Positions 2,096 through 63,802 of a stretch of DNA of 64,000 nucleotides are shown here, piece by piece. The stretch covers positions 47,189-111,188 of IMG/VR virus record IMGVR_UViG_3300041964_000014. The stretch is one strand, 5' to 3'. The stretch comes from a virus. Made by a program: the position numbers and the translations under genes. The notes beneath the pieces were generated by a model. That model was not told the DNA's origin and did not search any database. It saw nothing but the letters and a program-made list of their open reading frames with translations. Every line of letters starts with the position of its first letter. Positions within the stretch are counted from its first letter, which is position 1.

Positions 2096-2810
2096 TTAAA
2101 TCCTGCATTTGTGATTCTATTTGACGTTTTTTCTTCATCAAGTCTTCCAACACCGATTGGCGACTTTCCACTGATTTTAATAAGTTATTAATACGTTGTT
2201 TACCTTGTTTTTTACCTGCTTTCTTATTGTTTTCGGCTTGCTCTAATTGTTGCAATTCTAATAGCTCATTGACAATCTTTTCAGCGTTTATAGGTTCTCC
2301 CATTATATTTCGGACTAGTGTATGCCCTTTACTAATTAGTCCTATAGCAGCCTCCAAGTCTTTGATTTTATGCGAACGAGCAAATGGGGATGCCTGAGTA
2401 ATATCTTCTTCCCCCGTTGTATCGGATAACAATGCTTCGGTGTCTAGCCATATATCTAATTGCTCGTATATCTTATCGAGCAGTATAAGGTTTTTAGCGT
2501 CGTAACGAGCGCTTTCACTCATTAGTGAGTTGACTTTTTCTTGCCCAATACGTCGCTTGATTTTTTGCTTGTACAGCTCCCTACGTTCTACCCATTTCTC
2601 TGTACGACATTTCTCAGCTAACCGCCTTACATCTATTTCGTATTTCTTAGCTAAATCAGCTTGAGAAGGGAAATACATATTGCGGGTGCCTGTATTGCTG
2701 TCTACTGTTATGCATCCGTGTATGTATTCTGCTTCGATGCTTAACCAGTCTATCTGACGCCGTGTAGACGCTGATCCTGGTTTGTGCTGTATCTGTCGGA
2801 TATCGTGCAT
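2070..2810 (-). CDS. Probable terminase small subunit
   Basis: IDWLSIEAEYI...SQADLAKKYEID...EKWVERRE HTH-type N-terminus typical of TerS, coiled-coil C-terminus, upstream of terL on the same strand. Confidence 0.65.
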   Translation of the reverse strand: MHDIRQIQHKPGSASTRRQIDWLSIEAEYIHGCITVDSNTGTRNMYFPSQADLAKKYEIDVRRLAEKCRTEKWVERRELYKQKIKRRIGQEKVNSLMSESARYDAKNLILLDKIYEQLDIWLDTEALLSDTTGEEDITQASPFARSHKIKDLEAAIGLISKGHTLVRNIMGEPINAEKIVNELLELQQLEQAENNKKAGKKQGKQRINNLLKSVESRQSVLEDLMKKKRQIESQMQDLSEPNDISE

Positions 2811-2974
2811 AAGTGTATATTGTGAAATACTGTTTATATACTGTTATTTTAGTGTAGTTTGATGTGGATTGATATAGGTACTGTTCTTGTGGAAAACGTT
2901 ACCCCCAATAACGTAGAATACCACACAGGCTAAAACGTATACACCGTATACCTTACACCAATTCAACAACACCA

Positions 2975-3003
2975 GTGACAAAGCAGGGGGTGAAAGGTAT
3001 TCT
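2975..3003 (+). promoter_or_regulatory. Candidate sigma70-type promoter for the + strand early region
   Basis: GTGACA-17 nt-TATTCT in the divergent intergenic region between terS and the first + strand gene. Confidence 0.4.
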
Positions 3004-3195
3004 ATATACATGGCGAGGGAATGGCTCTCGTAGCGCGTCGGTCGGTTACTTCCCCTTAATGGTAGGGGTATATACAGTAACCTTAATTACCCACTATGGT
3101 GATTAATTTAGTTGCTCTTAACTCAGCTATCTGTATATCAGTTAGTTGTATTGAGTGCAATGCACTCTCTTACCCTGTTTATCGAGGTTTTTATC

Positions 3196-3948
3196 ATGTC
3201 TGATTTTACTTTTCCCACAATTCAGATTACTTGTGTTGATACTAATCTAGTTGTCCCAGTCGAGACTAAACTGGCTAAAGGCAAGTTAGAAGACGTTTTC
3301 TACCGTATCGAGTTAGTGCGTGATTTTCCCACGTTAAGCATTGGTATATCATTAGGCACTCAATCCACCCAAACACCCGAAAAAGGCAAGCCCGGTTACA
3401 AAGTCAAGGGTACTAAGTACGTTGACTACTCACCGCTTATCGTTTACTCTTTCGATAAGCAAATGCAACCTAGCATTGATAAGTTCGATTTACTCGACCA
3501 ATCCCCATCAGTGGACGGCTCAACAGTGTATATATATACAAATGACAATAAGAAGGAAGCCCGCGACTACCCCAATCACTTAGACCTGATTAACTCACAT
3601 ATCCTACCTATGGCTGTGAGATTGCTGTTTAATCCGAAATACATAGGTGCCAGGTTCTCTAGTTGGCTATACGTCGGCTTAAAGCTTATCACCCTCATTA
3701 CTGAGAGAATTGACAAGACAGAGGATAACGGCTTTATTAAGACACTACAACCAATCACACAAGAAGCACTGTTTGAAGCGGTTACCAGTGCCCAGAGTGA
3801 ATTACACAGTGCTAAAGCATACGTTACCGAGACTCATACAAAGATTGCTGAATCAATCCGTAGCAAGCAGAAGCAGTTACCTAATGTACCCGCTACCGTG
3901 ACTGTTGAAGCTGAAGTTAAACCAGTTATATCAACAGAAACCAAGTAA
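3196..3948 (+). CDS. Hypothetical protein (likely start MSDFTFP at 3196)
   Basis: ORF 3112..3948; GAGG RBS precedes ATG 3196; no recognised motif. Confidence 0.7.
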   Translation: MSDFTFPTIQITCVDTNLVVPVETKLAKGKLEDVFYRIELVRDFPTLSIGISLGTQSTQTPEKGKPGYKVKGTKYVDYSPLIVYSFDKQMQPSIDKFDLLDQSPSVDGSTVYIYTNDNKKEARDYPNHLDLINSHILPMAVRLLFNPKYIGARFSSWLYVGLKLITLITERIDKTEDNGFIKTLQPITQEALFEAVTSAQSELHSAKAYVTETHTKIAESIRSKQKQLPNVPATVTVEAEVKPVISTETK

Positions 3949-3957
3949 CGTGTACTA

Positions 3958-4016
3958 GTCCGAAACAATAAGAGGCGAGGCGGCTCAAATGTCACTTACC
4001 CTTATTGATTTCGGAC
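3958..4016. repeat. Inverted pair of the GTCCGAAAYAATAAG motif
   Basis: gtccgaaacaataag ... cttattgatttcggac. Confidence 0.9.
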
Positions 4017-4105
4017 AGCATCCCGTCTCTATCTTTCCTTTCACGGATAGATAGACAGGGGATAAATGCCTCTAACACACAGTACTCTAATGGTGAGTAA
4101 CACAA

Positions 4106-6601
4106 ATGACTAACTACGACGCTTTAAACAAATCTGAACTTTGGGCACTAATCAAGACTCGTCAGAACACTGCGGGTGTACATAGCAGTATCAACGATAT
4201 CGTGTGGCAAACATCTAAGCGCGATATGGTGTATGCGCTTATCTGGGATGATAACCAACATATACACTTACCTGTGCCAGAGGTAGTTAGTGCTGAAGCT
4301 GTTAGTGATGACTTCTCGCTATGGGATGAGATAGTTAGTGAAGCGTTAGGGGAAGAAATAGTCGATAGTACCCCCCCTACCCTTAGCGGAACTGTAGTAC
4401 ACGAACCAACCAACCAAATAATTCCTAAAGCTGATGTGATAACAGAATCACATACATCAACCGAAGTATCTCCCCCAAAACTTGATGTGATAACAAGTAC
4501 CACAAGTACGGTGGATACTACAGAGGTAGCTAACGTAATTACCTCCACAAAAAAATCAACCACTACAAAAGCAAGTGTTAGTTCTGCGAAAGCACTCACA
4601 AATACACCGGATACTGTAATAACCCGTACCACTGTTTACACATGGCAATATTTAGACCATGAGATGAGCGGACGCTGGAAACAGATCACTGAGCAAGAAA
4701 GCATTGAGCAATATATAGAGTTTTTGGAAGCGGTTAACGCTCATTTGCAAGCTAACAATGCTAAGACGTTCTTAGTCAGGAATTGTACTCTATCCGTAAA
4801 AATGAAACCTCGGATAGTAAAAGAGCAAGATGTAAATGGACGTACCTTAAACCGTATAGACCGTTCGGCTCAAAAGAACAATATGTACGATAACCGCAAT
4901 CGTACATCTATGGCTACCACTGAAACAGCTGGTAGAAATATTGGTGAAGCTGCTGTTAAAGCGTCGGTACTGTTTCAAGCTAGTCGCTACATACCTCAAG
5001 CTATTCGGGTAAACAATGCTTGGAATATCGACGGGATTGACACAATAAGTGTTAACGGTAAGCAAGTTTATCCGGTATCGCTTACAGCAGCTATTGACGA
5101 GAGTGAGCCTGTAAATCAAGACTTACCCACTAAGGTGTTGAAACGTCGTGAAATATCGGCAGAGAAAAAGGTTGAAGGTCGTTCTTTCTCTCATATCCGG
5201 GGAAAAATCAACAACGGTTTATCACCATCGTTTAAGGACGGTGATAAGTTCTTCTGCTTTCAAGTAGACAGCAATAACCGAGTGTCGTTGTGGCTACTCT
5301 CTAATGATGTAAACCATACTGTGTCAGCCAGTGATTTAGTTAAGGGTAGGAAGCTAGCCGATATCGGTTACGTAGAGGCACAACCGTATCAAGAGACTGA
5401 ATTTGTCAATGTCACAATGGACATGATTAAAGGAGGGCAAGAAGCACGGGTTGAACGCTTTGACTGGATACGTAAGCAACTAAATAAACAGTGGCTTGAT
5501 TCCGATGAAGCTATTTATCAATTCCTATCCAACCTAAAAAAAGTAAATGGCGAGGCGCTTGTTATCACAAACCTACAAGTTATCGATGGTGTTGTAACTG
5601 GTAACCTGTATGGCAGCAAGCTAATTATCCGTAAGAGAAATGTTACAAAGCATCGTGTAGTATTTCACCCTGTAATCCGTTCGAGCTTTGGAATGGGGGA
5701 GCGCAACAAAAAAACTGGTAGCAAAATCATTAGAGATACTGCTGTAAGTCGTAGCGATGCTTATGACCGCATAATCGCAGCAGCTAATACTTGGCTGTTT
5801 GGGATTGGTGGCAGTGTGCTAAGTGACCTTAACGTGAGGACAGACGGGTTAACACATCGTAACCAGGTAATAGGGTTGCATAACGCTCAACGTAACGCCC
5901 GTACACGGGAAAGGTTTGATGGAACTAAGAAATCGCTTCGCAATCCGAAAGATAGAAAGTACATTGCAAAGCTGCTAACCCGGTTCACTACTAACGGGAT
6001 ATTCACCCGTACAGACGGAGATTACATCGGTAAGCTAACCAAAACAGATGGCTCTCAATTAACCGAGAGCGAGATTACACGCATTACTGAAGTAGTAATG
6101 AACAACTACCCCGTAAATAAACCATTAGCCACTTTATTCACTCCCTCTCACTTTGACTCTCCTGAAGAATGGCAGAGTACATTCCTGAACTTGTTAAAAG
6201 CTTATGGGGATATCGAGGTGGCTATCCTAGAAGATGGCAAACTACTAACATACAACACAGGTAATCAGGTTCTTGAAGGATACGCACGAGAGCTGTACTC
6301 ATATCTGCAAAGTATGGGTAAGGAAGTAGACACACTCACAATGAACGGTGCTATAGAGCTATTACAGATGTCTCCCTCATCACCGTATAAGGAAATTCTG
6401 TTAAGGGTGCCTAACGTAGCACAGCTTAATGGTAGTCAATCCTTGAGATTGTTAGCAGGGCATGACAGAGCTGAGGCAATCGCTCAACGTCGCAAGGAAA
6501 GTATCTACAATCTGACGGTAGGTTTAGAGGTAGCAAAGCTAGACAAAGTAGCTGCTGATAAAGCAGCTAAACTAGCCAAGCTAACGCAACATCTCAAATA
6601 A
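4106..6601 (+). CDS. Large hypothetical protein (831 aa) with a small N-terminal helical domain and a T/S-rich linker
   Basis: Long ORF; N-terminus YDALNKSELWALIKTR resembles Rho-N/SAP-like helix-extension-helix; no catalytic motif recognised. Confidence 0.75.
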   Translation: MTNYDALNKSELWALIKTRQNTAGVHSSINDIVWQTSKRDMVYALIWDDNQHIHLPVPEVVSAEAVSDDFSLWDEIVSEALGEEIVDSTPPTLSGTVVHEPTNQIIPKADVITESHTSTEVSPPKLDVITSTTSTVDTTEVANVITSTKKSTTTKASVSSAKALTNTPDTVITRTTVYTWQYLDHEMSGRWKQITEQESIEQYIEFLEAVNAHLQANNAKTFLVRNCTLSVKMKPRIVKEQDVNGRTLNRIDRSAQKNNMYDNRNRTSMATTETAGRNIGEAAVKASVLFQASRYIPQAIRVNNAWNIDGIDTISVNGKQVYPVSLTAAIDESEPVNQDLPTKVLKRREISAEKKVEGRSFSHIRGKINNGLSPSFKDGDKFFCFQVDSNNRVSLWLLSNDVNHTVSASDLVKGRKLADIGYVEAQPYQETEFVNVTMDMIKGGQEARVERFDWIRKQLNKQWLDSDEAIYQFLSNLKKVNGEALVITNLQVIDGVVTGNLYGSKLIIRKRNVTKHRVVFHPVIRSSFGMGERNKKTGSKIIRDTAVSRSDAYDRIIAAANTWLFGIGGSVLSDLNVRTDGLTHRNQVIGLHNAQRNARTRERFDGTKKSLRNPKDRKYIAKLLTRFTTNGIFTRTDGDYIGKLTKTDGSQLTESEITRITEVVMNNYPVNKPLATLFTPSHFDSPEEWQSTFLNLLKAYGDIEVAILEDGKLLTYNTGNQVLEGYARELYSYLQSMGKEVDTLTMNGAIELLQMSPSSPYKEILLRVPNVAQLNGSQSLRLLAGHDRAEAIAQRRKESIYNLTVGLEVAKLDKVAADKAAKLAKLTQHLK

Positions 6602-6641
6602 ACCGCTTAGTTATCTACTCTAAAACTGAATACCACTAATT

Positions 6642-6690
6642 AGCTTACCAGGTTAACTCTCTAACGAGGGTTAATTTGGTAGGCTTTTTT
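6642..6690 (+). terminator. Intrinsic terminator
   Basis: agcttaccaggttaactctc-taac-gagggttaatttggtaggct followed by a T run. Confidence 0.75.
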
Positions 6691-9826: not shown

Positions 9827-9863
9827 GTCCGAAATAATAAGTGCCCCGCTATTTATTTCGGAC
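9827..9863. repeat. Inverted pair of the motif
   Basis: gtccgaaataataag-tgccccg-ctatttatttcggac. Confidence 0.9.
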
Positions 9864-14208: not shown

Positions 14209-14244
14209 GTCCGAAATAATAGCTTCCTCCTTGTTGTTTCGGAC
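14209..14244. repeat. Inverted pair of the motif
   Basis: gtccgaaataatag...cttgttgtttcggac. Confidence 0.85.
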
Positions 14245-15208: not shown

Positions 15209-15694
15209 ATGTCTACGAATCTTACACTCGACCAAGCCAAACAATTTGCTCAAGCGTTACCCTACGATAGTAACTTAAGGGTAGTTGTCGCTAGTACTGA
15301 GACTTATAAGCTCGTTAATGCTGACGAGTATGCGCCGCAACCGGGAGAATCGTATTGGGCAACAACACCTAGTGTAATAAGTCAGATTCAGAATCGATTT
15401 CCTGAAGGTTATTTGTCTGGCAACTCATGTATCAAATTAATTAAGTTGCTTCGGACTATTGACACCAACTTAGGACTTCGCGAAGCCAAAGATGTTGCCG
15501 ACTACTTACTTCCATCCATAGAGGCGACAAAAGAAAAGTGGAAACAGCAAATCTCAGATAGCACTGCCTTACAGGACAATAAGTTTTTTGGTTGTGATGC
15601 CTCCGCTTTGGAAGACTTAATTGAAATACTCACGAATGATCAGCTTAATTCCGAGGATGTGAAAGAAATTGTGAATGTATTAATCGGTAAGTAA
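15209..15694 (+). CDS. Protein with a ribosomal L7/L12 C-terminal-like domain, paralog 2
   Basis: IKLIKLLRTIDTNLGLREAKDVAD matches the L7/L12 CTD pattern KI..IK.VR..TGLGLKEAK..VE. Confidence 0.55.
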   Translation: MSTNLTLDQAKQFAQALPYDSNLRVVVASTETYKLVNADEYAPQPGESYWATTPSVISQIQNRFPEGYLSGNSCIKLIKLLRTIDTNLGLREAKDVADYLLPSIEATKEKWKQQISDSTALQDNKFFGCDASALEDLIEILTNDQLNSEDVKEIVNVLIGK

Positions 15695-15708: not shown

Positions 15709-15742
15709 GTCCGAAATAACAAGACACTTATTTATTTCGGAC
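15709..15742. repeat. Inverted pair of the motif
   Basis: gtccgaaataacaag-aca-cttatttatttcggac. Confidence 0.9.
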
Positions 15743-17317: not shown

Positions 17318-18235
17318 ATGACCACTACTATGCCTAAATTAGGGCTGTGTTGTTTAACAGATGATAAGATAATTAGTTATCGCACAATAACTAAGACGAG
17401 GTTTGAGAGACTTAATTACAGCGAACAATATACTGCGCTATATAAGATATATAGCGACAATGTAGCTATGTTTGCTACAGCTATTAAATACTGTAGTGAT
17501 AACGGTATTAAAATGTACCGTGTAACAAGCCATCTATTTCCCTTTTACGAGAGTACCGTAGGAGCAGATATTTTAGATCACTTAACCGATAAGTTGCTAG
17601 ATGTAGGTAATTTAGCGAGAGCATTAGATATAAGGGTAGTAATGCACCCAGATCAATGGGTAGTTCTTAGCTCCGATACTAAAGAAGTTGTGGAGCGTAG
17701 TATCCAGGAACTACAACATCACGCACGAGTGTTTGATGATATGGGATTATCTCAGACACACTATAACTTGCTTAACATTCACGGGGGTAAGAGAGACAGG
17801 CTTAATAACCTGATAAAGGTTATCAATGATTTACCTACCAACGTTAAGTCCCGACTCACATTGGAGAATGACGAAAACTGCTACAGTGTCAGAGAGTTGT
17901 ATAAGGTACACGAGCTGACCAACATACCCATACTCTTTGATTTCCACCATTCAATTATTAATAACAAATTGTGCAGCTATGATCACAAGAAGATTACCGA
18001 AGAATACCAAGTTGCAGCCTCCACATGGTCTCAGCACAGTAACGTCACTACTCATATATCTAATGGCGCTGCTGATTTGTTGGATAGCAAGCATAGTGAT
18101 TATATTGTTAGATATCCAGAGTTACTACTCACAGTACCGTGGGTAGAGGTTGAGGCTCGGAAAAAAGAACTAGCATTGGTACAATTGAAACAAAGTTTAG
18201 AAAACTATTATGGACATGACCACACAAACAATTGA
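17318..18235 (+). CDS. uvsE: UV damage endonuclease
   Basis: LGLCC, YRVTSHLFP, MHPDQWVVLSS, NIHGG, RLTLENDE, FDFHH, HSDY, VEVEARKKELA. Confidence 0.92.
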   Translation: MTTTMPKLGLCCLTDDKIISYRTITKTRFERLNYSEQYTALYKIYSDNVAMFATAIKYCSDNGIKMYRVTSHLFPFYESTVGADILDHLTDKLLDVGNLARALDIRVVMHPDQWVVLSSDTKEVVERSIQELQHHARVFDDMGLSQTHYNLLNIHGGKRDRLNNLIKVINDLPTNVKSRLTLENDENCYSVRELYKVHELTNIPILFDFHHSIINNKLCSYDHKKITEEYQVAASTWSQHSNVTTHISNGAADLLDSKHSDYIVRYPELLLTVPWVEVEARKKELALVQLKQSLENYYGHDHTNN

Positions 18236-27515: not shown

Positions 27516-27564
27516 GTCCGAAATAATAAGTAGTCATTCCTCCGTGGCTCTTATTGTTTCGGAC
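27516..27564. repeat. Inverted pair of the motif
   Basis: gtccgaaataataag...cttattgtttcggac. Confidence 0.9.
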
Positions 27565-30884: not shown

Positions 30885-31700
30885 ATGGATATTACACGAT
30901 ATTTAGGACAACCGAAAGGATTTATAGGTTCCACGGTTGCTGTTTACGTTTGTCCTTGTTGTAACAAGGATCTAAAAGTAAATATAGCAATAAAAACAAA
31001 ACCTTACAAATGCTGGAGTGGTGGTTGTACTCCAGATCAGATCCGGGCTAAGTTGAAGCTAACCGTACTTCCCAAGTCCGAAATAATAAGCCAGCCAGCT
31101 TACAACATTCAGCCAATCCACTTAAGTAGCATAGATCCCCTATTTATTTCGGACTATGTTCCTCCTATCGCGGTACGACGTAATATAATTCACGACGGCA
31201 AGGCAGCGGTAAGTACTACTTATAGGTACTCATCTACACATCAAGTACAACGTATAGATTTCCTAGACGGTAGTAAGAAAAAGTTTCTGCCGTCTTATAT
31301 ATTTGAAGGAAACAGAAAATACGGGGCAGATTACAATTGCCCACTGTTTAACGAAGAATTTATTAAAGATGAGGGTAAAACAATCTATATGGTGGAGGGA
31401 GAAAAATGTGCTGTAACAATGACACAAGCATTAGGGCTGTTAGCTGTAAGTCCACCGGGATTTGGATGGAACGAAAAGTATTTAAGACCTAGACTGCAAA
31501 TACTCTCTAAGAAAATATCGGGGATTGTAATTCTGCCTGACAATGATAAAGCTGGTATAACCAAAGCGGATTTATTACGAACAGTAGCTTGGACAGTCGG
31601 GATTCCCACTAAGTTAGTTAAGTTCCCAGAAGCCCAAGACAGTGAAGATATAGCTGATCTGATATATAGAAACGTTAATGTACTACCTTACTTAAAGTAA
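30885..31700 (+). CDS. DNA primase (Zn finger + TOPRIM)
   Basis: CPCC...YKCWSGGC; YMVEGEKCA; ILPDNDKAG; EDIAD. Confidence 0.85.
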   Translation: MDITRYLGQPKGFIGSTVAVYVCPCCNKDLKVNIAIKTKPYKCWSGGCTPDQIRAKLKLTVLPKSEIISQPAYNIQPIHLSSIDPLFISDYVPPIAVRRNIIHDGKAAVSTTYRYSSTHQVQRIDFLDGSKKKFLPSYIFEGNRKYGADYNCPLFNEEFIKDEGKTIYMVEGEKCAVTMTQALGLLAVSPPGFGWNEKYLRPRLQILSKKISGIVILPDNDKAGITKADLLRTVAWTVGIPTKLVKFPEAQDSEDIADLIYRNVNVLPYLK

Positions 31701-33394
31701 TGCTTAATAACTTGTTAATCATGCTCAGTAATGAGCCAGATTCATCACGTCGGCTGGTGCTGATGGACGACTGGCTTGTGGATAACCCAGATATAATGTC
31801 CAAGGAAGAACTCGAAGATCAGTTCTATCAGTATCTCGAAGACATTACCCGAGAAAGATTATTGCTGATCCGGGACGCCCCGAATCCATTTAAAAGTGCG
31901 TCGTTGAAAAATGATTTAGTAAATTGGTTGAAACTATTTGTTTCGGACAAACAAGACCTTCAACGGTTAATAGAAACATACTCATCGGAGGCAAAAGAAG
32001 CCGAAACCTATACTCTCGCTCAGTTGCGGGAGTTAGCTAAAGACCATAAAGACTTTTACTTAGTTCAAGGACTAATAAGGAAGAATATATTACTACTTAT
32101 TGTTGGTGCGCCCAAGACAGGCAAGTCGCTATTTGCTACTAACCTAGCGGTACGGGTTATCCAGGGTGAGCCGTTTCTGAATAGAAATACTTATAAAAGC
32201 CGAGTATTATTTCTTCAAAACGAAGAAAACGTTATAAATACATATAAGCGTATTTATAACAATGGACTTCAGCTGCTAGAAGCACAAGAGCCAGAATTAT
32301 TTAATGAATTATTGGATAGTGAGAATCTGTTAATTGCCAAGCATCTTGACTTGGTAGTTGATAAGAAAACTATTATTAAAACTCTGGAAGAAAGTGAAGC
32401 CGATGTGCTAATCATCGACTCACTGGCTGCGTCTATACGTAAGTCCGGACTAACCGAATATTCCCCCGAACTAGCTGGTGTACTATACGATTATCAAGAG
32501 ATAGCGCATACTCGGAATGTAACTATCTTAGTACTGCATCATAGTACTAAGATGGATTCCACCGAAAGCAAAACATCAATGATACGAGGTGTTGGTGGTA
32601 GTAACGCATTAGTACGGGCTAATGACGGATTGTTTAAGCTACATCCACGTAAAGATGGTGATGTCGATTTATTTACCATTCCTCGGGATGGAAATCCCGA
32701 AGAGCTAGTAATCCGTTATGTAGAGGAGGAGGCATCGTTCTGGAGCTTCGAGGTTAAGGCAGAGAAGACTTTGTCTCCAGAAAACATAGCACTCCAGAAC
32801 TCTATTCTTCGTTTGTTGCTAGAGTCTTACTTGTTGTGGAAAGAATCAGTTACAGAAGATGATACAGAAGTTGGGGGTCTTAATTTAACTGAGCTAGTGG
32901 ATATCCTTGCTGTTCCACGGATGGATATTATCAAAAGGCTCAATCATATGTATGATACAGAAGGTATTTCCCGACGTATCTCCCAACGAAAATATGTGTA
33001 TCACATTCCTGCTAGTGGTGAAAGCTGGCTATTAGCTTACTTAGAGGTAGAGGAAGCTGAGAAACGGAGACAACAAGAACAGCAGGAAATAGACGCTCGG
33101 ATGGCAACTGCTGTCCGAAATACTAAGACGAGGGAAGAGTTTCTTGCTTTAATACAAAACTGGACAGACGAGGAAAAGAAACGGGTTTTTAATTTAATCG
33201 ACCCAGCTATTCGGCTAGAAAAAATGTTATTAGTAAACCCACCTAAGTATCCGGTTGGTACTGCTTTAACAGTAGAAGGCATCGAAGTATTCGTAGCAGA
33301 AGTCAAAATCAAGGAAGGTAAACACTTGTATAATATCCGTGATGCAGCAGGAAATGTATTAACCGAGTACTTGGAGGAACAGCTGAATACATGA
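31700..33394 (+). CDS. RecA-family (AAA_25/RepA-like) replicative helicase
   Basis: GAPKTGKS Walker A, VLFLQNEE, VLIIDSL Walker B, VLHHSTK, RGVGGS. Confidence 0.85.
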   Translation: MLNNLLIMLSNEPDSSRRLVLMDDWLVDNPDIMSKEELEDQFYQYLEDITRERLLLIRDAPNPFKSASLKNDLVNWLKLFVSDKQDLQRLIETYSSEAKEAETYTLAQLRELAKDHKDFYLVQGLIRKNILLLIVGAPKTGKSLFATNLAVRVIQGEPFLNRNTYKSRVLFLQNEENVINTYKRIYNNGLQLLEAQEPELFNELLDSENLLIAKHLDLVVDKKTIIKTLEESEADVLIIDSLAASIRKSGLTEYSPELAGVLYDYQEIAHTRNVTILVLHHSTKMDSTESKTSMIRGVGGSNALVRANDGLFKLHPRKDGDVDLFTIPRDGNPEELVIRYVEEEASFWSFEVKAEKTLSPENIALQNSILRLLLESYLLWKESVTEDDTEVGGLNLTELVDILAVPRMDIIKRLNHMYDTEGISRRISQRKYVYHIPASGESWLLAYLEVEEAEKRRQQEQQEIDARMATAVRNTKTREEFLALIQNWTDEEKKRVFNLIDPAIRLEKMLLVNPPKYPVGTALTVEGIEVFVAEVKIKEGKHLYNIRDAAGNVLTEYLEEQLNT

Positions 33395-35468
33395 TACAAC
33401 CGTGTTTACTGGCTATGCTCCAGCCAGATGTACAGCTGGACAGCCATATTATTCTGATAGACCATCCGGATTTCTTTGACGCCCTCCGAGAGTTTCACAA
33501 TGCTGAGCTGTTTGGCTGTGACATCGAGACTTTTGGAGCCAAGGGGGAAATATTCGATAAAGAGAATGATGACGCTTTAGTGCCCTGGAAAGGATGTATC
33601 CGGCTGATTCAGATTGCTCTCCCAGTATCGCGGAGAGTCATTATTGTTGACCTTGGTGGACGGGAATACAAGCCTGTGCTGTATCCTGAGCGATATCGGC
33701 AGTTTGGAATAGTACTACTCACAAAGCTAGCGTGTCCGAAAACAAAAAGGTTGGACATAATTTCAAGTTTGATGGCAAGTTTTTGGCAGTGCATCTAGGG
33801 GCTACTTTCCGGACACTATGTGACACTATGTTGATGTCGCAAATTGTTTGGTCGGGTGTTGGAGTATCTAAAGCCAAGAAAGGAGAAAACAGAGCTGATC
33901 GTTGTAAGTTATCTCATAGTCTCAAAGCAGTAGCTGAAAGACTAGAAATAGGGGATTTAGATAAAACAGAGCAAAAAAGTGATTGGGGAGGCACACTTAC
34001 TAATGCTCAGTTAAATTATGCAGGAAATGACGCATTAATACTACTGGATATATACGCAAGATTACGGCGGTTAATTATAGAGCATCAACAACAGTACCCT
34101 ATTTATAGCGAGTTTTTGTTTCTTCCAGTACTAATAGATATGGAAGTACAAGGTGTACCTGTTGATGCCGCTAGATTAGATGAGTTAATCTTGCAATATA
34201 CAGAAGCTATTAACTACCATACTGCTATTTGGTATAGCGAGTTTCCTGATTTATCTCATACTGCTACTAAGAAAGATCTTGTACCCGCACTTAATAATAA
34301 GTACAGTTTAAATCTAGAGGCAACTGATGATAGTGCTTTAGCTCCTTTAGCAAAAGAGTATCCTGCCATTAGAGCGCTGTTAGATTACCGTACATTAAAT
34401 ATTAGTCTTAAGTACCTTACTAGTGTTAAGACTAATATGTTTAACGGTACAGTACGTAGTAATTATAGGCAGGTTACTGGAGGCTGGCGTACTAGTAGTA
34501 ATAAGATAAATCTACAAAACCCTCCTAAACTGCATCCTCGGTTTAAGCAGTACAATTACGGTAGTGTTAAAAGTGCATTTAAACCCCCCGAGGGTTATGC
34601 GTTTTTAGTGGCAGATCTTAGTGCCGCGCATAGTCGCATTGCCACTCAAGTAACTAAATGTCAGGCATTAATTGATGGTTATAACTTAGGACAAGATAAT
34701 CACATTAAAGTATGTGCAAGAATACTGCAAGCTAGTGGAGTAGAAGTATCAGAACAAGAAGCTCTTAATTTACATAAGAGTTACAAGGCTAAAAAGAAAG
34801 ATAAATTAGCAGTAACAGAATTAGAAGCTAAGGTTGCTGAATATCGTGACTACGGTAAGATAGGTTTCTACGCCTATCTAAATCAAGCTGGGGCTTATAC
34901 TATGCAGCAGACTTTTGCTGGATGGGGAATTACAGTTACTTTAGAATTCTGCGAACTACTAATTAGTATTCTTAGAGAAATATACGGAGAGATCTACGAC
35001 TATGTACGTAAGGTATTAATCCCCTACGCTAATAGTCATGATATTGATTTCAGCCATTTTAAGGACATAAATGGTAAGCCATTACAAGGTACATACGGTA
35101 TTACTTATGGACTAACGGGTGGGCGTAATTATTGTTTAAAGGTAAAGAATAAACATACAGGTAGATACGAGGTTCCTTACACAGATACTATTAGCTTTAC
35201 TTGGCTAAGTAGTGAAGCCAATATGTTAATGGAGGCAGCCGGATTACTGTATCTAGAGTTTCTCAATCACCCTGAATGGGAAGCTCGTATATGTAACTAC
35301 GTTCACGACGAGACAGATATAGTATGTCTGCAAGAATACGCGGAGGTTGTGGCTAGCCTGGTTGGCAATACTATTAAAGCTGTACTAAGCCGATTTATTA
35401 CTATCATTCCAGTAGAAGAGGATAGTAACTATAGTGCTTTTATTGTTGAGGACTGGAGTAAGAAATAA
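33391..35468 (+). CDS. polA: Family A DNA polymerase with 3'-5' exonuclease; one apparent frameshift near 33745
   Basis: Exo I CDIET, Exo II GHNFKFD, Exo III YAGNDA; NLQN, motif A ADLSAAHSR, motif B R..GK...YA, motif C VHDE. Confidence 0.88.
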
Positions 35469-36452: not shown

Positions 36453-36700
36453 ATGACGGAGTTTAGTTTAGATTTAGCAAAACAATTGATTAATTCTGGA
36501 GAACAATTTCCAGTTAATTTTAACGATGCTTATGTATGGTTAGAATATTCCAGAAAAGACAATGCTAAAGTTAGTTTTCTTAAGTGTGGGTTTATCGAGG
36601 GTGTAGATTATCGGCTCCTGAGAGTTCAGGAGTCGGCTCCAACGGGGATAGATATTTAAAAGAAGCCATAACATCTATATCCGATTTGTTAGTAGATTAA
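36453..36700 (+). pseudogene. Internally deleted AntA-like antirepressor (paralog of 12442..13188)
   Basis: Starts MTEFSLDLAK...VWLEYSRKD, stops after 68 aa; an out-of-frame tail RYLKEAITSISDLLVD* matches the end of 36746..37519. Confidence 0.75.
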
Positions 36701-37547
36701 GTCCGAAATAATAAGAAGCGCGGGGCTTCTTATTATTTCGGACTATTGTTTTGTGTATATAAAAAGGAAATTATTATGTTACAAGTAATTGAAAAGAATA
36801 GTGTTTTAGTAGTAGACTCTCGTTTAATTGCCGAAGAATTGGGAATAGAACATCGTAGTTTTAAAGATACTATCCAGGTTAATGCTTCAGATTTAGAGGA
36901 ACATTTTGGACAGTTGCGGCGTGAAACCGCACCGTCAAAAGCTAATGGTGGTGGGGGTTTTGGAGAAACGTACTATTTGCTAACAGAAGAACAAGCCACT
37001 TATTTGATGACTCTTTCTCGTAATACTGAGCAAGTCAAGAAAGCCAAGCTTAATTTAGTTAAAGCCTTTAGTGCGGCTAAACAATCCTTAATCGTAACTC
37101 CTAGCAAAGAAATAACACAGTTATTAACTACACTAATTAATAACCAACAAAATCAGGCACAGCAATTAGCTACATTAACTGAACGTACACAACGTTTAGA
37201 TACTGTAGAACAAGAGAAAGCACAATTAGCTAACCAACTTACAGAGTTTAATGTAGCTGGCTCAATACATCAAGGTTGTTACAATATTATTCGTGCCGAG
37301 ATTAATCAACAAACTATAGTACTGATTACTGCTACAGATTACTTATTAGAAAACGGTAAATCAATAACTTACTCAAAACTACTCGCTCGACGTGCTGCTA
37401 GTTTGTATCGTTGTAGTAGAAAAGCCGAACCATTTAAAAACAAACAAAATCAAATGTTATTTGAACGTAAATATCTTGATGAAGCCATAACATCTATATC
37501 CGATTTGTTAGTAGATTAAGTCCGAAATAATAAGAAGCGCGGGGCTT
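36662..37547 (+). repeat. 67-bp exact direct repeat (36662..36728 and 37481..37547), each copy running into an inverted motif pair
   Basis: gaagccataacatctatatccgatttgttagtagattaagtccgaaataataagaagcgcggggctt occurs twice; motif pairs at 36701..36743 and 37520..37564. Confidence 0.92.
36776..37519 (+). CDS. Rha-family phage regulatory protein with shared C-terminal module
   Basis: LVVDSRLIAEELGIEH...YLLTEEQATYLMTLSRNTEQVKKAKLNLVKAF. Confidence 0.8.
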   Translation: MLQVIEKNSVLVVDSRLIAEELGIEHRSFKDTIQVNASDLEEHFGQLRRETAPSKANGGGGFGETYYLLTEEQATYLMTLSRNTEQVKKAKLNLVKAFSAAKQSLIVTPSKEITQLLTTLINNQQNQAQQLATLTERTQRLDTVEQEKAQLANQLTEFNVAGSIHQGCYNIIRAEINQQTIVLITATDYLLENGKSITYSKLLARRAASLYRCSRKAEPFKNKQNQMLFERKYLDEAITSISDLLVD

Positions 37548-37587
37548 ACCTATTTATTTCGGACTATTACTTTATATCTAATAGATT

Positions 37588-41059: not shown

Positions 41060-41096
41060 GTCCGAAATAATAAGGGTGCATCTATTTATTTCGGAC
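41060..41096. repeat. Inverted pair of the motif
   Basis: gtccgaaataataag-ggtgcat-ctatttatttcggac. Confidence 0.9.
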
Positions 41097-42854: not shown

Positions 42855-45800
42855 ATGGACTTATTATCACAAGAGAGTTACCTAAAGTACTATCAGTTAA
42901 TCAATCCGCAGTATATTAGCTGGGACTTTTATTCGCAGTATTTAGACAAAGAACCCCCATTTGGTGAGTTAGGGGCAATTGTATTCCTACGTACATACAG
43001 TCGATTTGTGCTTGAACTCAAGCGACGCGAGAAGTTTGCCGAGACTTGTTTACGTGTTGTGGAATACAGTTTATCGCTAGATACTGTTAGCGATACTTAC
43101 GCTCTCCGGGAGGAAGCCGAGCAGTTATTTGATTGTTTATTTAGTTTACGGGGATTTGCTTCGGGACGCTCGTATTGGGTAGCCGGAACTGAGCAAACAA
43201 AACGATGTGGTTCTGCTACGTGGAATTGTTGCTTCCGTACAATGGATAGCATCTCCGCTTTTAGTGAAGTATTTTATTGGTTGCTACTAGGTGCTGGTGT
43301 TGGTTTCTCTGTAGAGAATAAGTATGTCAGCAAGCTGCCTACGTTTAATACTCAAGTAGAAATTAAACATACCCCATACATTTTTAATCAAAGTTATTAC
43401 CCTAATACTCTTATTTATCCCAATGAATCTCGGCTGGATGGCTATACTCTTACAGATACTGATCTAGTTGTTTCGGACGCAGAGTTTCTCCAACATTGGG
43501 GATTTCAGGATGAAGAACACTTTACCGTAATAGTTGGAGATAGTAAAGAAGGCTGGTGTACAGCTTTAAGAGTGTTATTGTATTTACTTACACTACCCAA
43601 CACTAAGTCAATAACATTTAACTATAATAACGTTCGCCCTAAAGGAGAACGTATTAAAGTATTTGGTGGACGTGCTAGTGGTCATCAGAATCTACAAGAT
43701 GTATTGCAACGTACTCACGACATTGTTTGCGAGAGTAAAGGTAAGCTTAATTCTCTTAACGTACTAGATGAAGTTAATACTATAGGTGTTGGAGTAGTTA
43801 GTGGCGGTGTTCGTCGTACTGCTGAAATTGCGTTAGGGGATGCGGATGATACTTATTTTATTGAAGCCAAACAAGATTTATGGACTGATGAGTCAAAGGC
43901 TAAGTATAGGAATATTCGAGTTATGTCTAATAATTCAGTAGTTTTCTATGAAAATCCTGGACTTGAAAAGATACGTGAAATTGTACGTAGAATTCAAACC
44001 AATGGTGAACCGGGCTTTTCTATTGTAGGCAATGCTCAAAAACATGATCCTAATATAAAGGGTTTCAATCCCTGCCATGAAGCCAGTCTTGATTCTCATC
44101 AATCCTGCAATTTAGTGACCGAGAATCTAGTAGCTCATATCTTTGATGGACTACTTGACTATGCTTTATTACAAGATACTTTACGCTTGATTACTCGTGT
44201 TGCGTGTCGTCAAACTACAGCTAGTCAGTGGCATCCACAATGGGACGCAGTACAAAAACGAGACAGACTAATCGGTGTATCGATGACTGGAGTTGAGGAT
44301 GCGTTTGATATTCTAAACTGGGGCGATGAACAAAAAGCTGATTTCTACAACTGGGCAGCAGATATTGTGCGGGATGAGGCAGATAAGTACAACGCTCATC
44401 TAGGTATTGAGAAATCTAAGCGGGTTACTTTGGTTAAACCTGAAGGCTGTGAAGTAATTGAGAGTTTGCGAGTCTTTAACGAAGGTATCCTTCGCATAGA
44501 TGAAATAGACTCCAATATATCTAATAAAACGGGATTTTACAAAAATACTGTTTCTTTGACAACAACACACTGGAATGATAAGGTTAGTAGCTTATTTAAT
44601 AATGGGTTATCTGATATTGCAGAAATTACTCTAAATAATGGTCGCAAGTTGAAGACAACAGTCGAGCATCGATTTCATGTGCAAGGAACATGGAAACGGG
44701 TTTTAGATCTAACTATAGGGGATGTATTAGATGTAGAATTAGGTAGTTATCAAAATAAAAACAATACCCCAATGTATGTTCCTACTAATGGAACAGGACT
44801 TAAGAAGGTTTCTCTACCTACACGAATGTCAGAACCTTTAGCTTGGTTTTTAGCTGCTATTTACGCAAATGGCAGCACTTCTACAAGGGGATATGTAGAT
44901 TTCTGTAGTGGACATTTGTTAGTTTGCACTAAATTCAAACAGATCGTTAAGCAATTATTCGGGGTAAATGTAGAGTTCAAAAAAGACTCTATAAAGGATA
45001 TGTATCGCACTCGTATTAATTCTGTCGATATTTGGCAATATTTGAAAGAAAATAACTGTTTAAAAAGCGATCAGTTTGATCGTGTACCGCTTGTTGTAAG
45101 AAAGTCTAGTCGTCAGAGTGTATTAGCTTTTGTGGCAGGCTATCTAGACACCGATGGCTGTTTTAAAAATAAAACTTGCGCGATTACATCCACGAAACTA
45201 GACTTTGCCCGAAATCTACAAGAAGTGTGCGAAGCCGTTGGATTATCATTCAGTGCTTACGAAACTAAACGAGAAACTACAAAAGGAGAATGTCATTATA
45301 TAGATTTGCAGTTATCCCGTACTTTTAGCACTAAAGATGCAATTGATTATATTAATCAAAACTGCATCAAGGCACAGGAGCATCCAATCCTTTACTCCAG
45401 TAAATCACATAAAAATCCCTATAAAGTAAAATCTATTACTTTACTGGATAACCTTGAAATGACTTATGATATCGAAGTAGAAAATTCACACTGTTACCTA
45501 AATGGGGGAATTAAATCGCATAACACATTAAGTCAATTGCCCACAGTATCGAGTGGTATTGGTAAAGCTTATGCCCCCTATTATCTTCGCCGTATAAGAT
45601 TTTCTAGTCTCGATCCACTAGCATTAGCACTGTATCAGCAAGGTGTGCCTGTAGTACCTGAGAATGGTCAGGGAGACGATTTATTTAGCGAAAAGTGCAA
45701 TACATGGGTATTTACTTTCCCAATAAAAACAAACGCTAAGATCCGTGCTATTGATGAACCTATTGAGGAGCAATTTAAGCGGTACTTGCTGGTACAAAAC

Positions 45801-46129
45801 ACATATGTGCGCGAAGGTTATAATGCGTCTAACACAATGACAGTAGCTCCGATGAGTGGGACAAAGCCGCTGAATTAGTGCATGAACATTGGGGTTCAAT
45901 TATTGGTATTACTTTTCTACCCCGTTTTGATCCACGAGAAGGAGGTAAAGCTGCTTATCCTAATATGCCGTATGAGCCTTGCGAAGAACACGAGTATATC
46001 GAGTACTCGAAACAACTACCTAAGTTAACTGAAAATGATTTAATAAGGTTAGTAGCAAGCTTTGAACAACAAGCAGAAGAACAAACTTTAGACGATGCTT
46101 GTTCGACAGGTGCGTGCCCCGTCCGCTGA
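42855..46129 (+). CDS. nrdJ: Class II (AdoCbl-dependent) ribonucleotide reductase with intein; apparent frameshift near 45860
   Basis: FLRTYSR, WNCCF, GAGVGFS, GGVRRTAEI, FNPCHE (thiyl Cys), CNL, VKPEG|T; C-terminal CSTGACPVR in the next frame (DEWDKAAELVHEHW joins the two). Confidence 0.9.
44448..45524 (+). mobile_element. Intein with LAGLIDADG homing endonuclease (359 aa) in nrdJ
   Basis: VKPEG|CEVIES...TVEHRF...FLAAIYANG...FVAGYLDTDG...TYDIEVENSHCYLNGGIKSHN|TLSQL. Confidence 0.92.
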
Positions 46130-49313: not shown

Positions 49314-49356
49314 GTCCGAAATAATAAGGGAGTGAGAGTTCCTTGTTGTTTCGGAC
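49314..49356. repeat. Inverted pair of the motif
   Basis: gtccgaaataataagg...ccttgttgtttcggac. Confidence 0.9.
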
Positions 49357-53449: not shown

Positions 53450-53487
53450 GTCCGAAATAATAAGACACCCCCTTTATTATTTCGGAC
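53450..53487. repeat. Inverted pair of the motif
   Basis: gtccgaaataataag-acaccccct-ttattatttcggac. Confidence 0.9.
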
Positions 53488-59460: not shown

Positions 59461-59464
59461 TAAA

Positions 59465-60022: not shown

Positions 60023-60023
60023 T

Positions 60024-60788: not shown

Positions 60789-61766
60789 ATGCGTAAACTA
60801 GCTACCATTCGAGTAATTGGTGAAATCTGTCCTATCGAGAATGCCGATTCTTTGGAGTTAGCAATTATCTATGGATGGCAAGCAGTAGTTAGGAAAGGAG
60901 AATACAAGGCAGGAGATATTGTAGTTTATTGTGAAATAGATTCTCTACTGCCAGTTATTCCAGAGTATGAGTTCTTACGGAAGTCTTGTTATAAGCGGCT
61001 TTCCGATGGACGAGAAGGTTTTCTAATCAAGACTATTAAGTTACGAGGACAATTATCTCAAGGGTTAGTATTGCCTGTAACTGCTCCAATATTCCAAACG
61101 ATTCCACCTCTGGGAACTGATGTTACTAAACTACTTGGCATTACTCATTACGATTCTTTAGCAGAAGGTAGTTTCCCAAGCTGTGTGCCTAAAACAGATG
61201 AGGAGCGTATCCAGAATCTTGTTTATATGTATCCAGAGTTATTAAACAACGAGTTTGCAGTTACGGAAAAGCTCGATGGTACTAGCTTTACTTGTTATAA
61301 CTATCGAGGACATTTTGGAGTATGTAGTCGCACCACAGAGTTACCAGATACTCCCAACTGCATATACTGGAATATAGTCCGAAAATATAAGCTGCGAGAA
61401 GCTCTGGAAAATACTAATATCGCAGTACAAGGGGAAATAATCGGACCCGGAATACGCGGCAATAAGTATAATCTCAAAGAGAAAGAGCTGTACGTGTTTA
61501 ATACATATAGTATTGATGCACAAAAGTACTTTAGTCCGTTTCTATCTCCGTTCCTGGCACAAGAGTTAGAGCTTAATTACGTGCCGATTATTTCAGACAG
61601 TATGCTTTTACCGGAAAGTATTTTAGATATTCTAGATTTTGCAGAAGGAAAGAGTGTACTAAACTCTGAAATAGAAAGAGAAGGTTTAGTATTTGTTAGT
61701 AGGTATGGTAAACGGATATCGTTTAAAGCTATATCTAATAAGTATCTATTAAAGTATAGTAATTAA
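60789..61766 (+). CDS. RNA ligase, DRB0094/Rnl5 type (N-terminal OB domain)
   Basis: RKLATIR..I.PI.NAD.LE, KLRGQLSQGL, PKTDEERIQN, TEKLDGTS, QGEIIG, EGLV, FKAISNKYL. Confidence 0.9.
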   Translation: MRKLATIRVIGEICPIENADSLELAIIYGWQAVVRKGEYKAGDIVVYCEIDSLLPVIPEYEFLRKSCYKRLSDGREGFLIKTIKLRGQLSQGLVLPVTAPIFQTIPPLGTDVTKLLGITHYDSLAEGSFPSCVPKTDEERIQNLVYMYPELLNNEFAVTEKLDGTSFTCYNYRGHFGVCSRTTELPDTPNCIYWNIVRKYKLREALENTNIAVQGEIIGPGIRGNKYNLKEKELYVFNTYSIDAQKYFSPFLSPFLAQELELNYVPIISDSMLLPESILDILDFAEGKSVLNSEIEREGLVFVSRYGKRISFKAISNKYLLKYSN

Positions 61767-61990
61767 AACCAATAGTTTAAGTACCTTAGTATCTATACTA
61801 TTAAGGTACTTAAACAAAGTAATATATTAAGAGAAAATAAATTATGTTTTACGTATTTGTTTATAACAGTACTAAGTACTACACAACTGTAGATAACTAT
61901 AGTAAGTTATCTAATGCTATTAAAACACAGTTTAAAGATGTTAACAAACGTAGTTATGTTAGTAGTAGTTATACTGAGTGGAAATAACCC

Positions 61991-62221
61991 ATGCTACATA
62001 AACATTTTAAAGGTAAGTATTACTTAGTACTAGGTCGTATCACTAATGGCGATACTTGTGAAGAATGCATAGTGTACTTATCTTTGTATGATAAGCCTCG
62101 CTTATTTGTTCGGACTGTTGCTGACTTTTATGCATGGATAAATAAACCGGAATACAACTACATAGGTAGTAGATTTACTAAAGTAACATTTACTAGTTAT
62201 TTAAAACAGTTATTTAAGTAA
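61991..62221 (+). CDS. DUF1653 domain protein
   Basis: HFKGKYYLVL......TCEECIVYLSLY....FVR....F. Confidence 0.8.
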   Translation: MLHKHFKGKYYLVLGRITNGDTCEECIVYLSLYDKPRLFVRTVADFYAWINKPEYNYIGSRFTKVTFTSYLKQLFK

Positions 62222-62873
62222 TGCTAAATAGTAACAATTACACAGTTATAGAAGAAGTATGCGATTACGAAGAAAAAGATATTGCTTCTTATATAGCTTA
62301 TTGTAGTGATGGTTATATACGTCGATATGTAGTTACTTTTAACCCCACTAATATTGAGCATACTAAAGAGACGTTTATTTACGAGGAGTATAAGCCTAGT
62401 AATAACAGTAAACAATATGATATATTGCAACTACTACTAAATACACTAAGTAGTGCCCCGTTATAGTCTGTAGATTTACCTTATTAAATATATGTCTAAT
62501 TTAACTACCAAAGAAGTTATTGATAATTTGGATGACGTAGGATATATAGCTAACTACGTTTGGGATATTTATAATAAATACTTTCCTAATTTTCCTACTA
62601 GTAAAGGTATTATTAAATCCACCGCAGAAGATGGTGCATTATTTTGTTGGCTACGTATGGTAGATAACAGTGAGTATATCATTATGGTGCATAACGATAT
62701 ACCGTGTTTGTTACCAACTGATTATCCGTATGTGAAGTGGTAGTGCTTATTATTTCGGGCTATAAGGGTATTGACATTGGCAATACCCTCCCAATATCAA
62801 TCATTAGTAAATAACCCTAATCCTGCAATATGATTAGGGTTATACTTTAGTTAGTTGTGTAGTTATTAAAGAA

Positions 62874-63802
62874 ATGTCTAATCCTATTGTGGTTAATCTG
62901 ATCGTTGTAGATGAGATTGAATTTTACGTATCTAGCGATGGGAGCTATACGGGAATGAGCCAAGACGGCTTATCCCGATTATGTGGAGTTAATTTAAAAA
63001 CCATTCAAGACCTACTACCTAAAATAGGGGTCACGGGTTATGGGGGTTCTGAAACCCTGGAAGCCTTGCCCCGTAAGGATCAATGGTCAGAGGTTGAGGC
63101 TCCAAATAATGCTGAGGTTATTCCTGCTGAAGTTTGTGCGGCTATCATAAAATACTATGCTTTTGAATCAAAAGTAGCTAATGACACAGCTAAATACGCA
63201 TTCCGTAAATTTGTAAGAAGGGTATAGATACTTGGATTAAAGAACTTACAGGATACGCGGAGCAGAATCGAAACGACCAGATACTAGCCTGCTTACATCA
63301 GGTAGTGGGTGACATTGCTGAACTAAAAGAAACTAGTAAAGCATATCATAACTTAAAAGGAACTACCACTAAGGTATTCCCTAATTTTAATAAGATGCTG
63401 GAAGATTTGGAAGTAGAAGACGAATTAGCAGAATTAGAGCCAGATACTAAGGAAATGACAGCTACTGAGTGGCTTAAATCTAAAGGTATTACATTTAATA
63501 TGCCCCAAAAACGCCGCTTTGCTTTACTGTTGTCCGAAACATATAAAACTACCGTAGGTAGCGACGCTAAGAAGGTTAACCGTAAATCTAAAGACGGTAA
63601 GAAAAACAATGGTGTTAGTGTTTACCATTGGACAGAGTTTCCAATTCTTCAGCTGTGTTTGAATAAGATGTTGTTCGAGGATAACGTAGCTTTAGTATTT
63701 CGGACTATGGGTATGGTTGACTATTATCTGTCTCCATACCTTCTTCTACAGCAGCTTCTTCAGCATAGCTTCTGGCGCAGGCGGAGTATTCAGTGCTTGT
63801 AG
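62874..63802 (+). CDS. Antirepressor-type DNA-binding protein, apparently frameshifted near 63220
   Basis: IEFYVS.DG..TGMSQ.GLSRLCGV...IIKYYAFES; the downstream frame continues to a TATEWLKSKG...Y C-terminal domain. The exact 3' end is uncertain. Confidence 0.55.

Follow-up and report, generated by a model that had tools for sequence, protein, structure and literature searches.

A strand-specific word iterated along both strands of a phage genome: a possible signal of the phage replisome

The stretch of DNA analysed here (the window, 64,000 nucleotides) comprises bases 47189-111188 of the 111,188-bp IMG/VR virus record IMGVR_UViG_3300041964_000014 (G000) and carries an asymmetric word with the core GTCCGAAA, which occurs about once per 1.1 kb in G000. 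The word is a real, highly non-random, DNA-level signal under selection for coverage of each strand. We tentatively consider it a lagging-strand priming or replisome signal of the phage's own machinery, a reading to which we give somewhat less than an even chance. Iterated words such as the uptake signal sequence (USS) and the DNA uptake sequence (DUS), Chi, the FtsK-orienting polar sequences (KOPS) and the highly iterated palindrome HIP1 have in each case brought to light a machine reading the entire chromosome. As far as we know and could find, no genome-wide iterated word private to a phage lineage has been described previously, and a literature search for the word returned only primers.

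Exact copies of the core number 57 in the window (positions 2308-63705), 29 on the plus and 28 on the minus strand, precisely the figures that the original prediction, a by-eye count, had given as approximate. For the one or two copies that it expected by chance, dinucleotide shuffles gave 1.23 ± 1.10 with a maximum of 4, and overall the observation proved stronger than estimated originally. Up to two mismatches allowed, the 15-mer GTCCGAAAYAATAAG was found 49 times against 0.38 expected, and in the whole record the core is the most over-represented 8-mer (38-fold; 101 copies, 52 plus and 49 minus). The copies follow the profile [A/T, never G]-GTCCGAAA-[T/C]-A-A-[T/A]-[A/T]-A-G-G, and most extend to GTCCGAAA-YAAWWAG-G; the AT-rich tail noticed originally is a conserved 3' part of the site. 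The site of 15-17 bp holds about 22 bits of information, to which the 3' tail contributes about 6.5 and the 5' flank next to nothing. Its conservation stops sharply at the 5' G and weakens toward the 3' side, and cores with one mismatch are rare. The lack of G at position -1 could be attributed to avoidance of GGWCC, which was observed 8 times in G000 and expected 25 times.

Inside open reading frames (ORFs) the record holds 69 cores, compared with 2.1 ± 1.3 after codon-order shuffles and 7.1 ± 2.2 after synonymous-codon shuffles in which every protein stays the same. The word is therefore not accounted for by codon usage or by the proteins encoded; synonymous sites have been recruited for it, and its enrichment survives the codon-order, synonymous and dinucleotide controls alike. 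The ORF copies fall into five frame/orientation classes, and all the peptide footprints listed earlier for different frames were recovered (KSEIIS, SSETIR, VRNNK, PIISD, LFVSD and MSEISR). A reading at the peptide level was rejected on account of these five classes and of the failure of the synonymous shuffle to reproduce the count. A promoter function, which the original prediction had also dismissed, was ruled out since the orientation relative to transcription shows no significant bias (34 copies in the same and 21 in the opposite direction, p = 0.10). Between 33 and 46 of the 101 copies, according to the cut-off chosen for ORFs, are intergenic, an approximately 3-fold enrichment in DNA that makes up about 12% of the record. 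A correction to the original prediction is that a few intergenic copies are carried along with duplicated antirepressor-gene cassettes and are not independent. Some copies supply the ends of genes (xPK-stop-stop, then GGAG).

The related phage G001 (IMGVR_UViG_3300018984_000002; soil crust, 127 kb, 99% complete, 33.4% GC) has 70 reciprocal-best genes in common with G000, at 58.6% nucleotide identity over aligned codons. Its top 8-mer is the same core (85 copies), and the density in the two phages is about one copy per 1.1-1.5 kb. The flanks in G001 are shifted: the 5' side (AAGA-) carries more information, and the tail is less strict. On each strand the copies are evenly spaced: the coefficient of variation (CV) of the per-strand spacing is 0.59 and 0.60 in G000 and 0.61 and 0.61 in G001, versus about 0.97 for random placement (P ≤ 0.001). 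Copies on one strand are on average 2.2 kb apart in G000, where the largest per-strand gap is below 6 kb, and 2.7-3.3 kb apart in G001. When the strand labels were permuted with the positions fixed, the mean per-strand CV of G000 rose from 0.594 to 0.774 (P < 0.0002); the same permutation in G001 gave P = 0.0004, with permuted values of 0.77-0.79 across both phages. In addition, single copies tend to alternate strands (53 of 78 in G000, p = 0.001; 43 of 68 in G001, p = 0.02). Both the non-random strand labels and the alternation indicate that the word is read in an orientation-dependent manner and that each strand has to be covered in its own right. For a site of compaction or segregation that is blind to orientation, one of the functions suggested originally, per-strand evenness and strand alternation would not be expected, and this suggestion has lost ground.

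While the word, its density and its spacing are conserved between G000 and G001, its positions are not, which argues for selection on coverage rather than on fixed sites. Only 6 of 36 intragenic copies in G000 and 6 of 21 in G001 lie at the same aligned position. At the non-shared sites the orthologue has unrelated codons and no gap; the copies thus arise and decay by substitution while the density is held constant. Insertion of a mobile repeat, of the repetitive extragenic palindrome (REP) or miniature inverted-repeat transposable element (MITE) type, was ruled out by the lineage-specific intragenic copies without indels, and only few intergenic copies move with cassettes. The original prediction had named a lack of conservation of intragenic copies in relatives as the outcome that would speak against it: by position this is largely the case (6 of 36 kept), whereas word, density and spacing have all been kept. 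Between G001 and the 3% divergent G003, 4 changes were counted in 270 motif nucleotides versus 8 expected, a comparison that is underpowered. Taken together, the information content of about 22 bits, the per-strand evenness, the strand alternation and the rapid positional turnover at constant density show that selection acts on the coverage of each strand, and they suggest a process in which one strand is read.

Among the six copies that have kept their position, three belong to one type. Several genes of the head module start with M-x-x-L-F-I-S-D, encoded by identical codons that form the exact reverse complement of the word (CTATTTATTTCGGAC). Such starts lie at positions 15346, 24801, 35840, 36241 and 43378 of G000, upstream of the window, and in the G001 orthologues. 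Judged by their codons, protein leader and DNA word appear to be dual-coded at these gene starts.

Outside this pair of phages the word fades. The distant relatives G011 to G015 (25-151 kb; capsid proteins 41-51% identical) have 0-1 copies and no discrete word of their own, and relatives whose primase is only 27-28% identical have 0-1 copies in 65-151 kb. The word is a derived feature of the G000/G001 clade.

Among the gene products of the window, a primase is the candidate reader; the helicase gene adjoins it, its start being the last base of the primase gene.
30885..31700, plus strand: candidate reader, a primase of 271 aa (Cys4 zinc ribbon, TOPRIM domain)
31700..33394, plus strand: RecA-type replicative helicase (AAA_25, gp4/RepA-like)

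The primase carries the motifs of the Cys4 ribbon and EGEK / DxD, and its gene itself holds two copies of the word, read as KSEIISQ and PLFISD. An AlphaFold2 model built from a 40-sequence alignment reached a pLDDT of 94.6. A fold search of the PDB with this model returned T7 gp4 structures on top, namely the primase fragment and the replisome (1NUI, E 3.5e-6; 5IKN), and then DnaG cores, while a sequence search of the PDB gave no match. The enzyme is thus predicted to have a T7 gp4-type fold. The recognition trinucleotide of T7 primase is 5'-GTC-3', and the word starts with 5'-GTC. T7 primase has been described as sensitive to the sequence flanking its site (PMC6136900). The binders proposed originally, namely the KilA-N, Rha, AntA and TerS proteins and an 831-aa protein, gained no support, and the primase is the better candidate; G000 and G001 differ in how many Rha, AntA and KilA-N paralogues they have, while the word is the same.

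We infer, unlike the statistics, the turnover, the orientation dependence, the primase fold and the clade restriction described above, that the reader is the primase or the replisome and that the word starts primers. According to this proposal, the phage replisome would read the word strand-specifically on DNA that is single-stranded or being unwound; most likely the word would tell the T7 gp4-type primase, working with the adjacent helicase, where to start or load for lagging-strand priming. As either strand could be the lagging-strand template, each would carry a usable site every 2-3 kb, roughly the length of one Okazaki fragment. Selection would keep the coverage of each strand and not particular positions, with copies gained and lost by point substitution even within genes, and intergenic plus and minus copies placed tail to tail would form hairpins that double as transcription terminators. 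Several observations are in line with this. The phage encodes a zinc-binding TOPRIM primase, and both genomes show Okazaki-scale intervals on each strand with a CV of about 0.6; the per-strand spacing of 2.2-3.3 kb lies within the known range of phage Okazaki-fragment sizes. The sharp boundary at the 5' G together with the decay on the 3' side fits a start site with an uncopied 3' recognition tail. A clade-specific word whose flanks have drifted between G000 and G001 is what would be expected of a phage-encoded, co-evolving reader.

A number of points weigh against the priming proposal. We know of no primase that needs more than 3-5 specified template bases, and a 15-nt site would be unprecedented; instead of short recognition without over-representation, we found about 15 nt, about 22 bits and a 38-fold excess. 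T7 primase prefers G or T at position -1, where the word never has G, although the GGWCC avoidance could account for this. Inverted pairs would fold on a single-stranded template and hide the sites, and equal coverage of the two strands needs a replication mode in which either strand can be lagging, a mode that we assume. The related-primase lineages G011, G012, L264 and L265 show no iterated word, and the cultured cyanophage PA-SR01 has only a weak one, at about 10 times expectation. The loci of a second group with a word of its own, described below, were chosen via the primase, which confounds the association, and the likeness of the two words was noticed after the fact. Moreover, the primase match in this group covers only the TOPRIM part and not the zinc ribbon, which reads the template in T7.

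This second group emerged from 80 IMG/VR loci that were fetched by primase similarity and screened for iterated 8-mers; the lax screen was noisy, and only the CCCGAACA group was convincing. Single-protein and two-protein locus searches of IMG/VR had found only G001. The group comprises 16 loci (L289, L291, L295, L298, L328, L337 and ten further ones) from otherwise unrelated phages of about 45% GC, which have the word TA[AT]CCCGAACA[AT]3 at about one copy per kb, mostly in ORFs, in several frames and both orientations. It has CCGAA in common with GTCCGAAA, and the primase is the only G000 protein with a homologue in 16 of 16 loci. As a side observation, the word is strongly one-stranded in L295 (2 plus, 14 minus), with 8 copies clustered in 0.8 kb at the end of the locus. 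In PA-SR01 (MT234670.1; L344, L345), 38 copies of GCAGAAAA with purines after it were counted in 92.5 kb, about 10 times expectation and equally on both strands whichever way the genes run; to judge from these counts, a cultured cyanophage may have a weak counterpart of the word. A bolder form of the priming proposal would be that the replisome has evolved a private start word of about 15 nt, which makes up an evenly spaced 'priming code' on both strands and within genes and co-evolves with the enzyme, and that related primases in unrelated phages would read CCGAA-centred words. We regard this form as possible but doubtful. If it is true, the code could confine efficient lagging-strand synthesis to phage DNA over host DNA or parasitic elements. 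If the primase is the reader, this would be the first long recognition sequence of a primase found to shape a genome, and the choice of Okazaki start sites would be directly testable with the 271-aa enzyme and synthetic oligonucleotides.

The inverted pairs in intergenic hairpins that were pointed out originally were also found, and they are terminator-like. All 19 close pairs across G000 and G001 are convergent (GTCCGAAA...TTTCGGAC), with none divergent or direct (p = 2e-6). Their hairpins have folding energies of -12 to -29 kcal/mol, with the GC-rich end at the base of the stem, beside a T-rich 3' flank; of 11 convergent hairpins in this range of free energy (dG), most have 4-7 T in the next 8 nt. 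In a terminator scan of 36-55 kb, 2 of 5 pairs were the best terminator-like sites there. The following hairpins lie in the window (dG in kcal/mol).
3958..4016: convergent hairpin pair, 59 nt, dG -26.0
9827..9863: convergent hairpin pair, 37 nt, dG -16.1; arms TAATAAG and TAAATAG, giving a 2x2 internal mismatch
14209..14244: convergent hairpin pair, 36 nt, dG -15.5
15709..15742: convergent hairpin pair, 34 nt, dG -11.7
27516..27564: convergent hairpin pair, 49 nt, dG -26.1; T-rich 3' side; upstream of an AntA-type gene
36701..36743: perfect hairpin of 19-20 bp, dG -28.7; top terminator-like site on the plus strand; first arm within the 80-nt repeat that brackets a Rha gene
37520..37564: convergent hairpin pair, 45 nt, dG -17.4; second copy of the Rha-bracketing repeat
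41060..41096: convergent hairpin pair, 37 nt, dG -14.4
49314..49356: convergent hairpin pair, 43 nt, dG -24.4; upstream of a Rha paralogue
53450..53487: convergent hairpin pair, 38 nt, dG -16.7; followed by a T-run; scored terminator-like on the plus strand

The repeat named in this list is a direct repeat of 80 nt (94% identical; window positions 36649-36728 and 37468-37547) around the Rha-family gene at 36746-37519. Each copy consists of the 3' end of a coding region (...ISDLLVD-stop) and the first hairpin arm. From its layout, this looks like a cassette duplication or insertion mediated by terminator hairpins. A similar repeat of 146 nt is located at 41081/41920.

With regard to the host, the searches refer to sampled genomes only. 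The possibility, raised with the original prediction, that the word is an ordinary host repeat found no backing in them: the word was not enriched in ten named genomes (two Nostocales among them), was matched no more than once in any of 401 evenly sampled Bacilli, and reached at most 3 one-mismatch matches in 151 sampled Cyanobacteria, equal to a reversed-pattern control. The exact 15-mer gave single chance matches among the matches listed for 185,579 genomes, which have no bearing on the host; two metagenome-assembled genomes matched twice by the 15-mer showed no enrichment by whole-genome count. For the inverted-pair form, 241 million metagenome records yielded 36 isolated palindromic hairpins in unrelated DNA, as expected by chance. 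Near-identical short contigs occur in one soil metagenome run and a relative in one biocrust run, each with a small share, and no RNA run was listed; the contigs of these runs give a thin cover in fragments, with no power for motif constraint. One capsid homologue has been binned with Nodosilinea. Restriction sites are avoided to an extreme degree: GGCC occurs once in G000 against 102 expected and never in G001 against 72 expected, many 6-bp palindromes are missing (CTGCAG, GGTACC, GAGCTC and others), GGWCC is absent from G011 and G012, and GATC, GGCC and GGWCC are all absent from 50 kb of PA-SR01. Such a pattern points to hosts that possess many restriction systems, as filamentous cyanobacteria do. 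Taking together the occurrence in the runs, the Nodosilinea bin and the avoidance of GGCC and palindromes, the host is probably a filamentous cyanobacterium of soil crusts.

Other explanations of the word have to be weighed against priming. It might be read by another phage-encoded, orientation-dependent DNA protein, such as a polar roadblock, a helicase or translocase loader, a recombination or packaging cofactor or a nucleoid organiser, which we consider unlikely while taking it seriously. A site of 15-17 bp and about 22 bits has the typical size of a protein operator, the phage has many clade-specific genes of no known function, and a clade-restricted word with drifting flanks fits a co-evolving reader of this kind as well. 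However, no candidate has come forward, the Rha, AntA and KilA-N numbers vary while the word is constant, and the strand alternation demands an account in which one strand is read. Known genome-wide sites, such as parS, the Noc- and SlmA-binding sites (NBS, SBS) and matS, number in the tens, are often palindromic and do not occur in coding DNA at one per kb. One-strand reading is inherent in a Chi-like signal, recognized directionally by a helicase-nuclease that enters from a DNA end (host RecBCD/AddAB or a phage exonuclease complex) and protecting or recombining permuted linear phage DNA, for which both orientations would be needed everywhere. Coverage of each strand follows from such recognition, TerS/TerL and an exonuclease are encoded by the phage, and phage P1 is rich in host Chi sites. 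Known Chi sites have 5-8 nt, though, whereas a 7-nt tail is conserved here in addition; if the host read the word as Chi, an enrichment in its genome and identical flanks in sister phages would be expected, yet no sampled genome was enriched, the flanks differ, and relatives apparently from the same kind of samples, by sample numbering, are without the word. We rate this explanation as rather improbable. Even less probability goes to the idea that a strand-specific nickase or base-modifying enzyme encoded by the phage acts at the word. In T5, phiKMV-like and tf phages, localized single-strand interruptions have an asymmetric consensus of similar length on defined strands, and the signal described here is also strand-specific. 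But such nick sites number 4-15 per genome rather than 100, nicks at convergent copies 30-50 bp apart would result in double-strand breaks, and no nickase or modification gene was identified.

The original prediction had likened the word to USS and DUS, and this resemblance is considerable: one copy per 1.1 kb, a core with an AT tail, equal strands, copies in coding DNA, terminator-like inverted pairs and a turnover by substitution as in molecular drive. An uptake-type signal, or another host repeat common to the phage and a naturally competent host, is nevertheless very improbable. Orientation has no effect on uptake (PMC1939737), yet the strand labels here are strongly non-random. No known uptake sequence matches, related phages lack the word, the ten named genomes, 401 Bacilli and 151 Cyanobacteria are not enriched, and the paired forms in metagenomes are chance palindromes. 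Density, core with AT tail and terminator-like pairs thus bear out the comparison as a likeness, while the orientation-dependent distribution speaks against membership. We attach similarly little weight to the view that the word is only the stem of the standard intrinsic terminator of the phage, with single copies as decayed or incipient halves without function. The 19 of 19 convergent pairs, the GC-rich stem end beside the T-rich 3' flank, the two best sites in 36-55 kb and the movement of some pairs with cassettes all fit a terminator. But only the pairs combine a GC-containing stem-loop with a U-tract, and about 80% of the copies are singles, mostly in ORFs, in both orientations and created by substitution. 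Moreover, decay would not yield exact 8-mer cores, per-strand evenness or alternation, and one-mismatch cores are in fact rare.

The source genome G000 has an estimated CheckV completeness of 76% and a GC content of 37.9%, and its head and packaging module is located just upstream of the window. The window contains a replication and nucleotide-metabolism module with exonuclease, primase, helicase, DNA polymerase, ribonucleotide reductase (RNR), RNA ligase and UvdE. Several Rha/AntA-type genes are encoded, and many genes are clade-specific and without known function. No tRNA genes were detected in the window, and no Rfam model matched it at gathering score. The nearest cultured relatives are the Pseudanabaena cyanophages PA-SR01 and Pam2 (137-143 kb), whose capsid protein is 31% identical (E 2e-48) and which have the primase-helicase pair in the same order; a megablast search with 20 kb of G000 gave no match among GenBank phages. 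Closer homologues exist at the protein level, with a capsid protein at 88% (P0003) and primases at 50-67% identity (P0065-P0068).

Some further observations concern individual genes and relatives. The DNA polymerase (window 33732-35468, 578 aa) has full-length homologues in the distant G011 and G012 (33-35% identical), while the match in G001 comprises 27 residues only; going by these alignments, the gene seems to have been replaced or lost in G001. In the RNR ORF (window 42855-45878, 1007 aa), residues 6-531 match RNR and residues 540-764 a family labelled terminase large subunit, and the G001 homologue has only 418 aa, so the ORF may contain an intein or a homing-endonuclease insert or represent a fusion. 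The UvdE-type UV-damage endonuclease (window 17318-18235, Pfam E 3e-59) fits the sun-exposed soil-crust habitat. In G011 (L249-L256) and G012 (L257-L263), the over-represented 8-mers with the most copies are rich in purines and include TAG (AGTAGTAG, AGGAGTAG and AGTAGAAG, 45-66 copies each). Simple codon bias (Ser/Val repeats) may account for them, or they may hint at a reassignment of TAG. Terminal repeats are present in G011, yet its completeness score is only 49%.

Whatever its reader, the word can serve as pull-down bait for a new DNA-reading protein and as a signature of this phage clade in soil-crust metagenomes. Among known systems, HIP1 (GCGATCGC), iterated in cyanobacteria and some cyanophages, is likewise a short word that has spread into coding DNA by substitution, in a lineage with a probable link to cyanobacteria in our case, but it is a palindrome common to host and phage, whereas the word is asymmetric; HIP1 was absent from the 50-kb stretch of PA-SR01 that was checked. 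The promoter early stem-loop (PeSL) cassettes of T4-type phages are repeated intergenic stem-loops flanking small accessory genes that are shuffled as cassettes, reminiscent of the Rha gene with its 80-nt repeat, but they are intergenic only, include a promoter and give no account of intragenic single copies. The USS of Pasteurellaceae and the DUS of Neisseriaceae resemble the word in density (about one per kb), core and AT-rich flank, balanced strands, location in genes, inverted-pair terminators and turnover by substitution. The word differs from them in sequence, in its presence in a phage and not in the sampled cell genomes, and in its orientation-dependent spacing. Chi (RecBCD/AddAB) is also an over-represented asymmetric word read directionally on one strand, but it has 5-8 nt, is defined by the host and is skewed with replication direction, in contrast to a strand-balanced word of 15 nt in one phage clade. 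The single-strand initiation (ssi) signals, such as ssiA/ssiB of RSF1010 read by the RepB' primase and the G4-type complementary-strand origins, would share with it a dedicated primase reading a long specific sequence, one signal per strand, and hairpin forms; they occur once or twice per replicon at the origin, while the word has about 50 copies per strand throughout the genome. The sites of T7 gp4 and DnaG primases, finally, are strand-specific like the word, which shares the GTC start and comes with a zinc-ribbon and TOPRIM primase of predicted T7 gp4-like fold and with Okazaki-scale spacing. Those sites have three nucleotides, turn up by chance every ~30 bp and leave the genome unmarked, whereas the word has about 15 nt, is 38-fold over-represented and is evenly distributed, also within genes.

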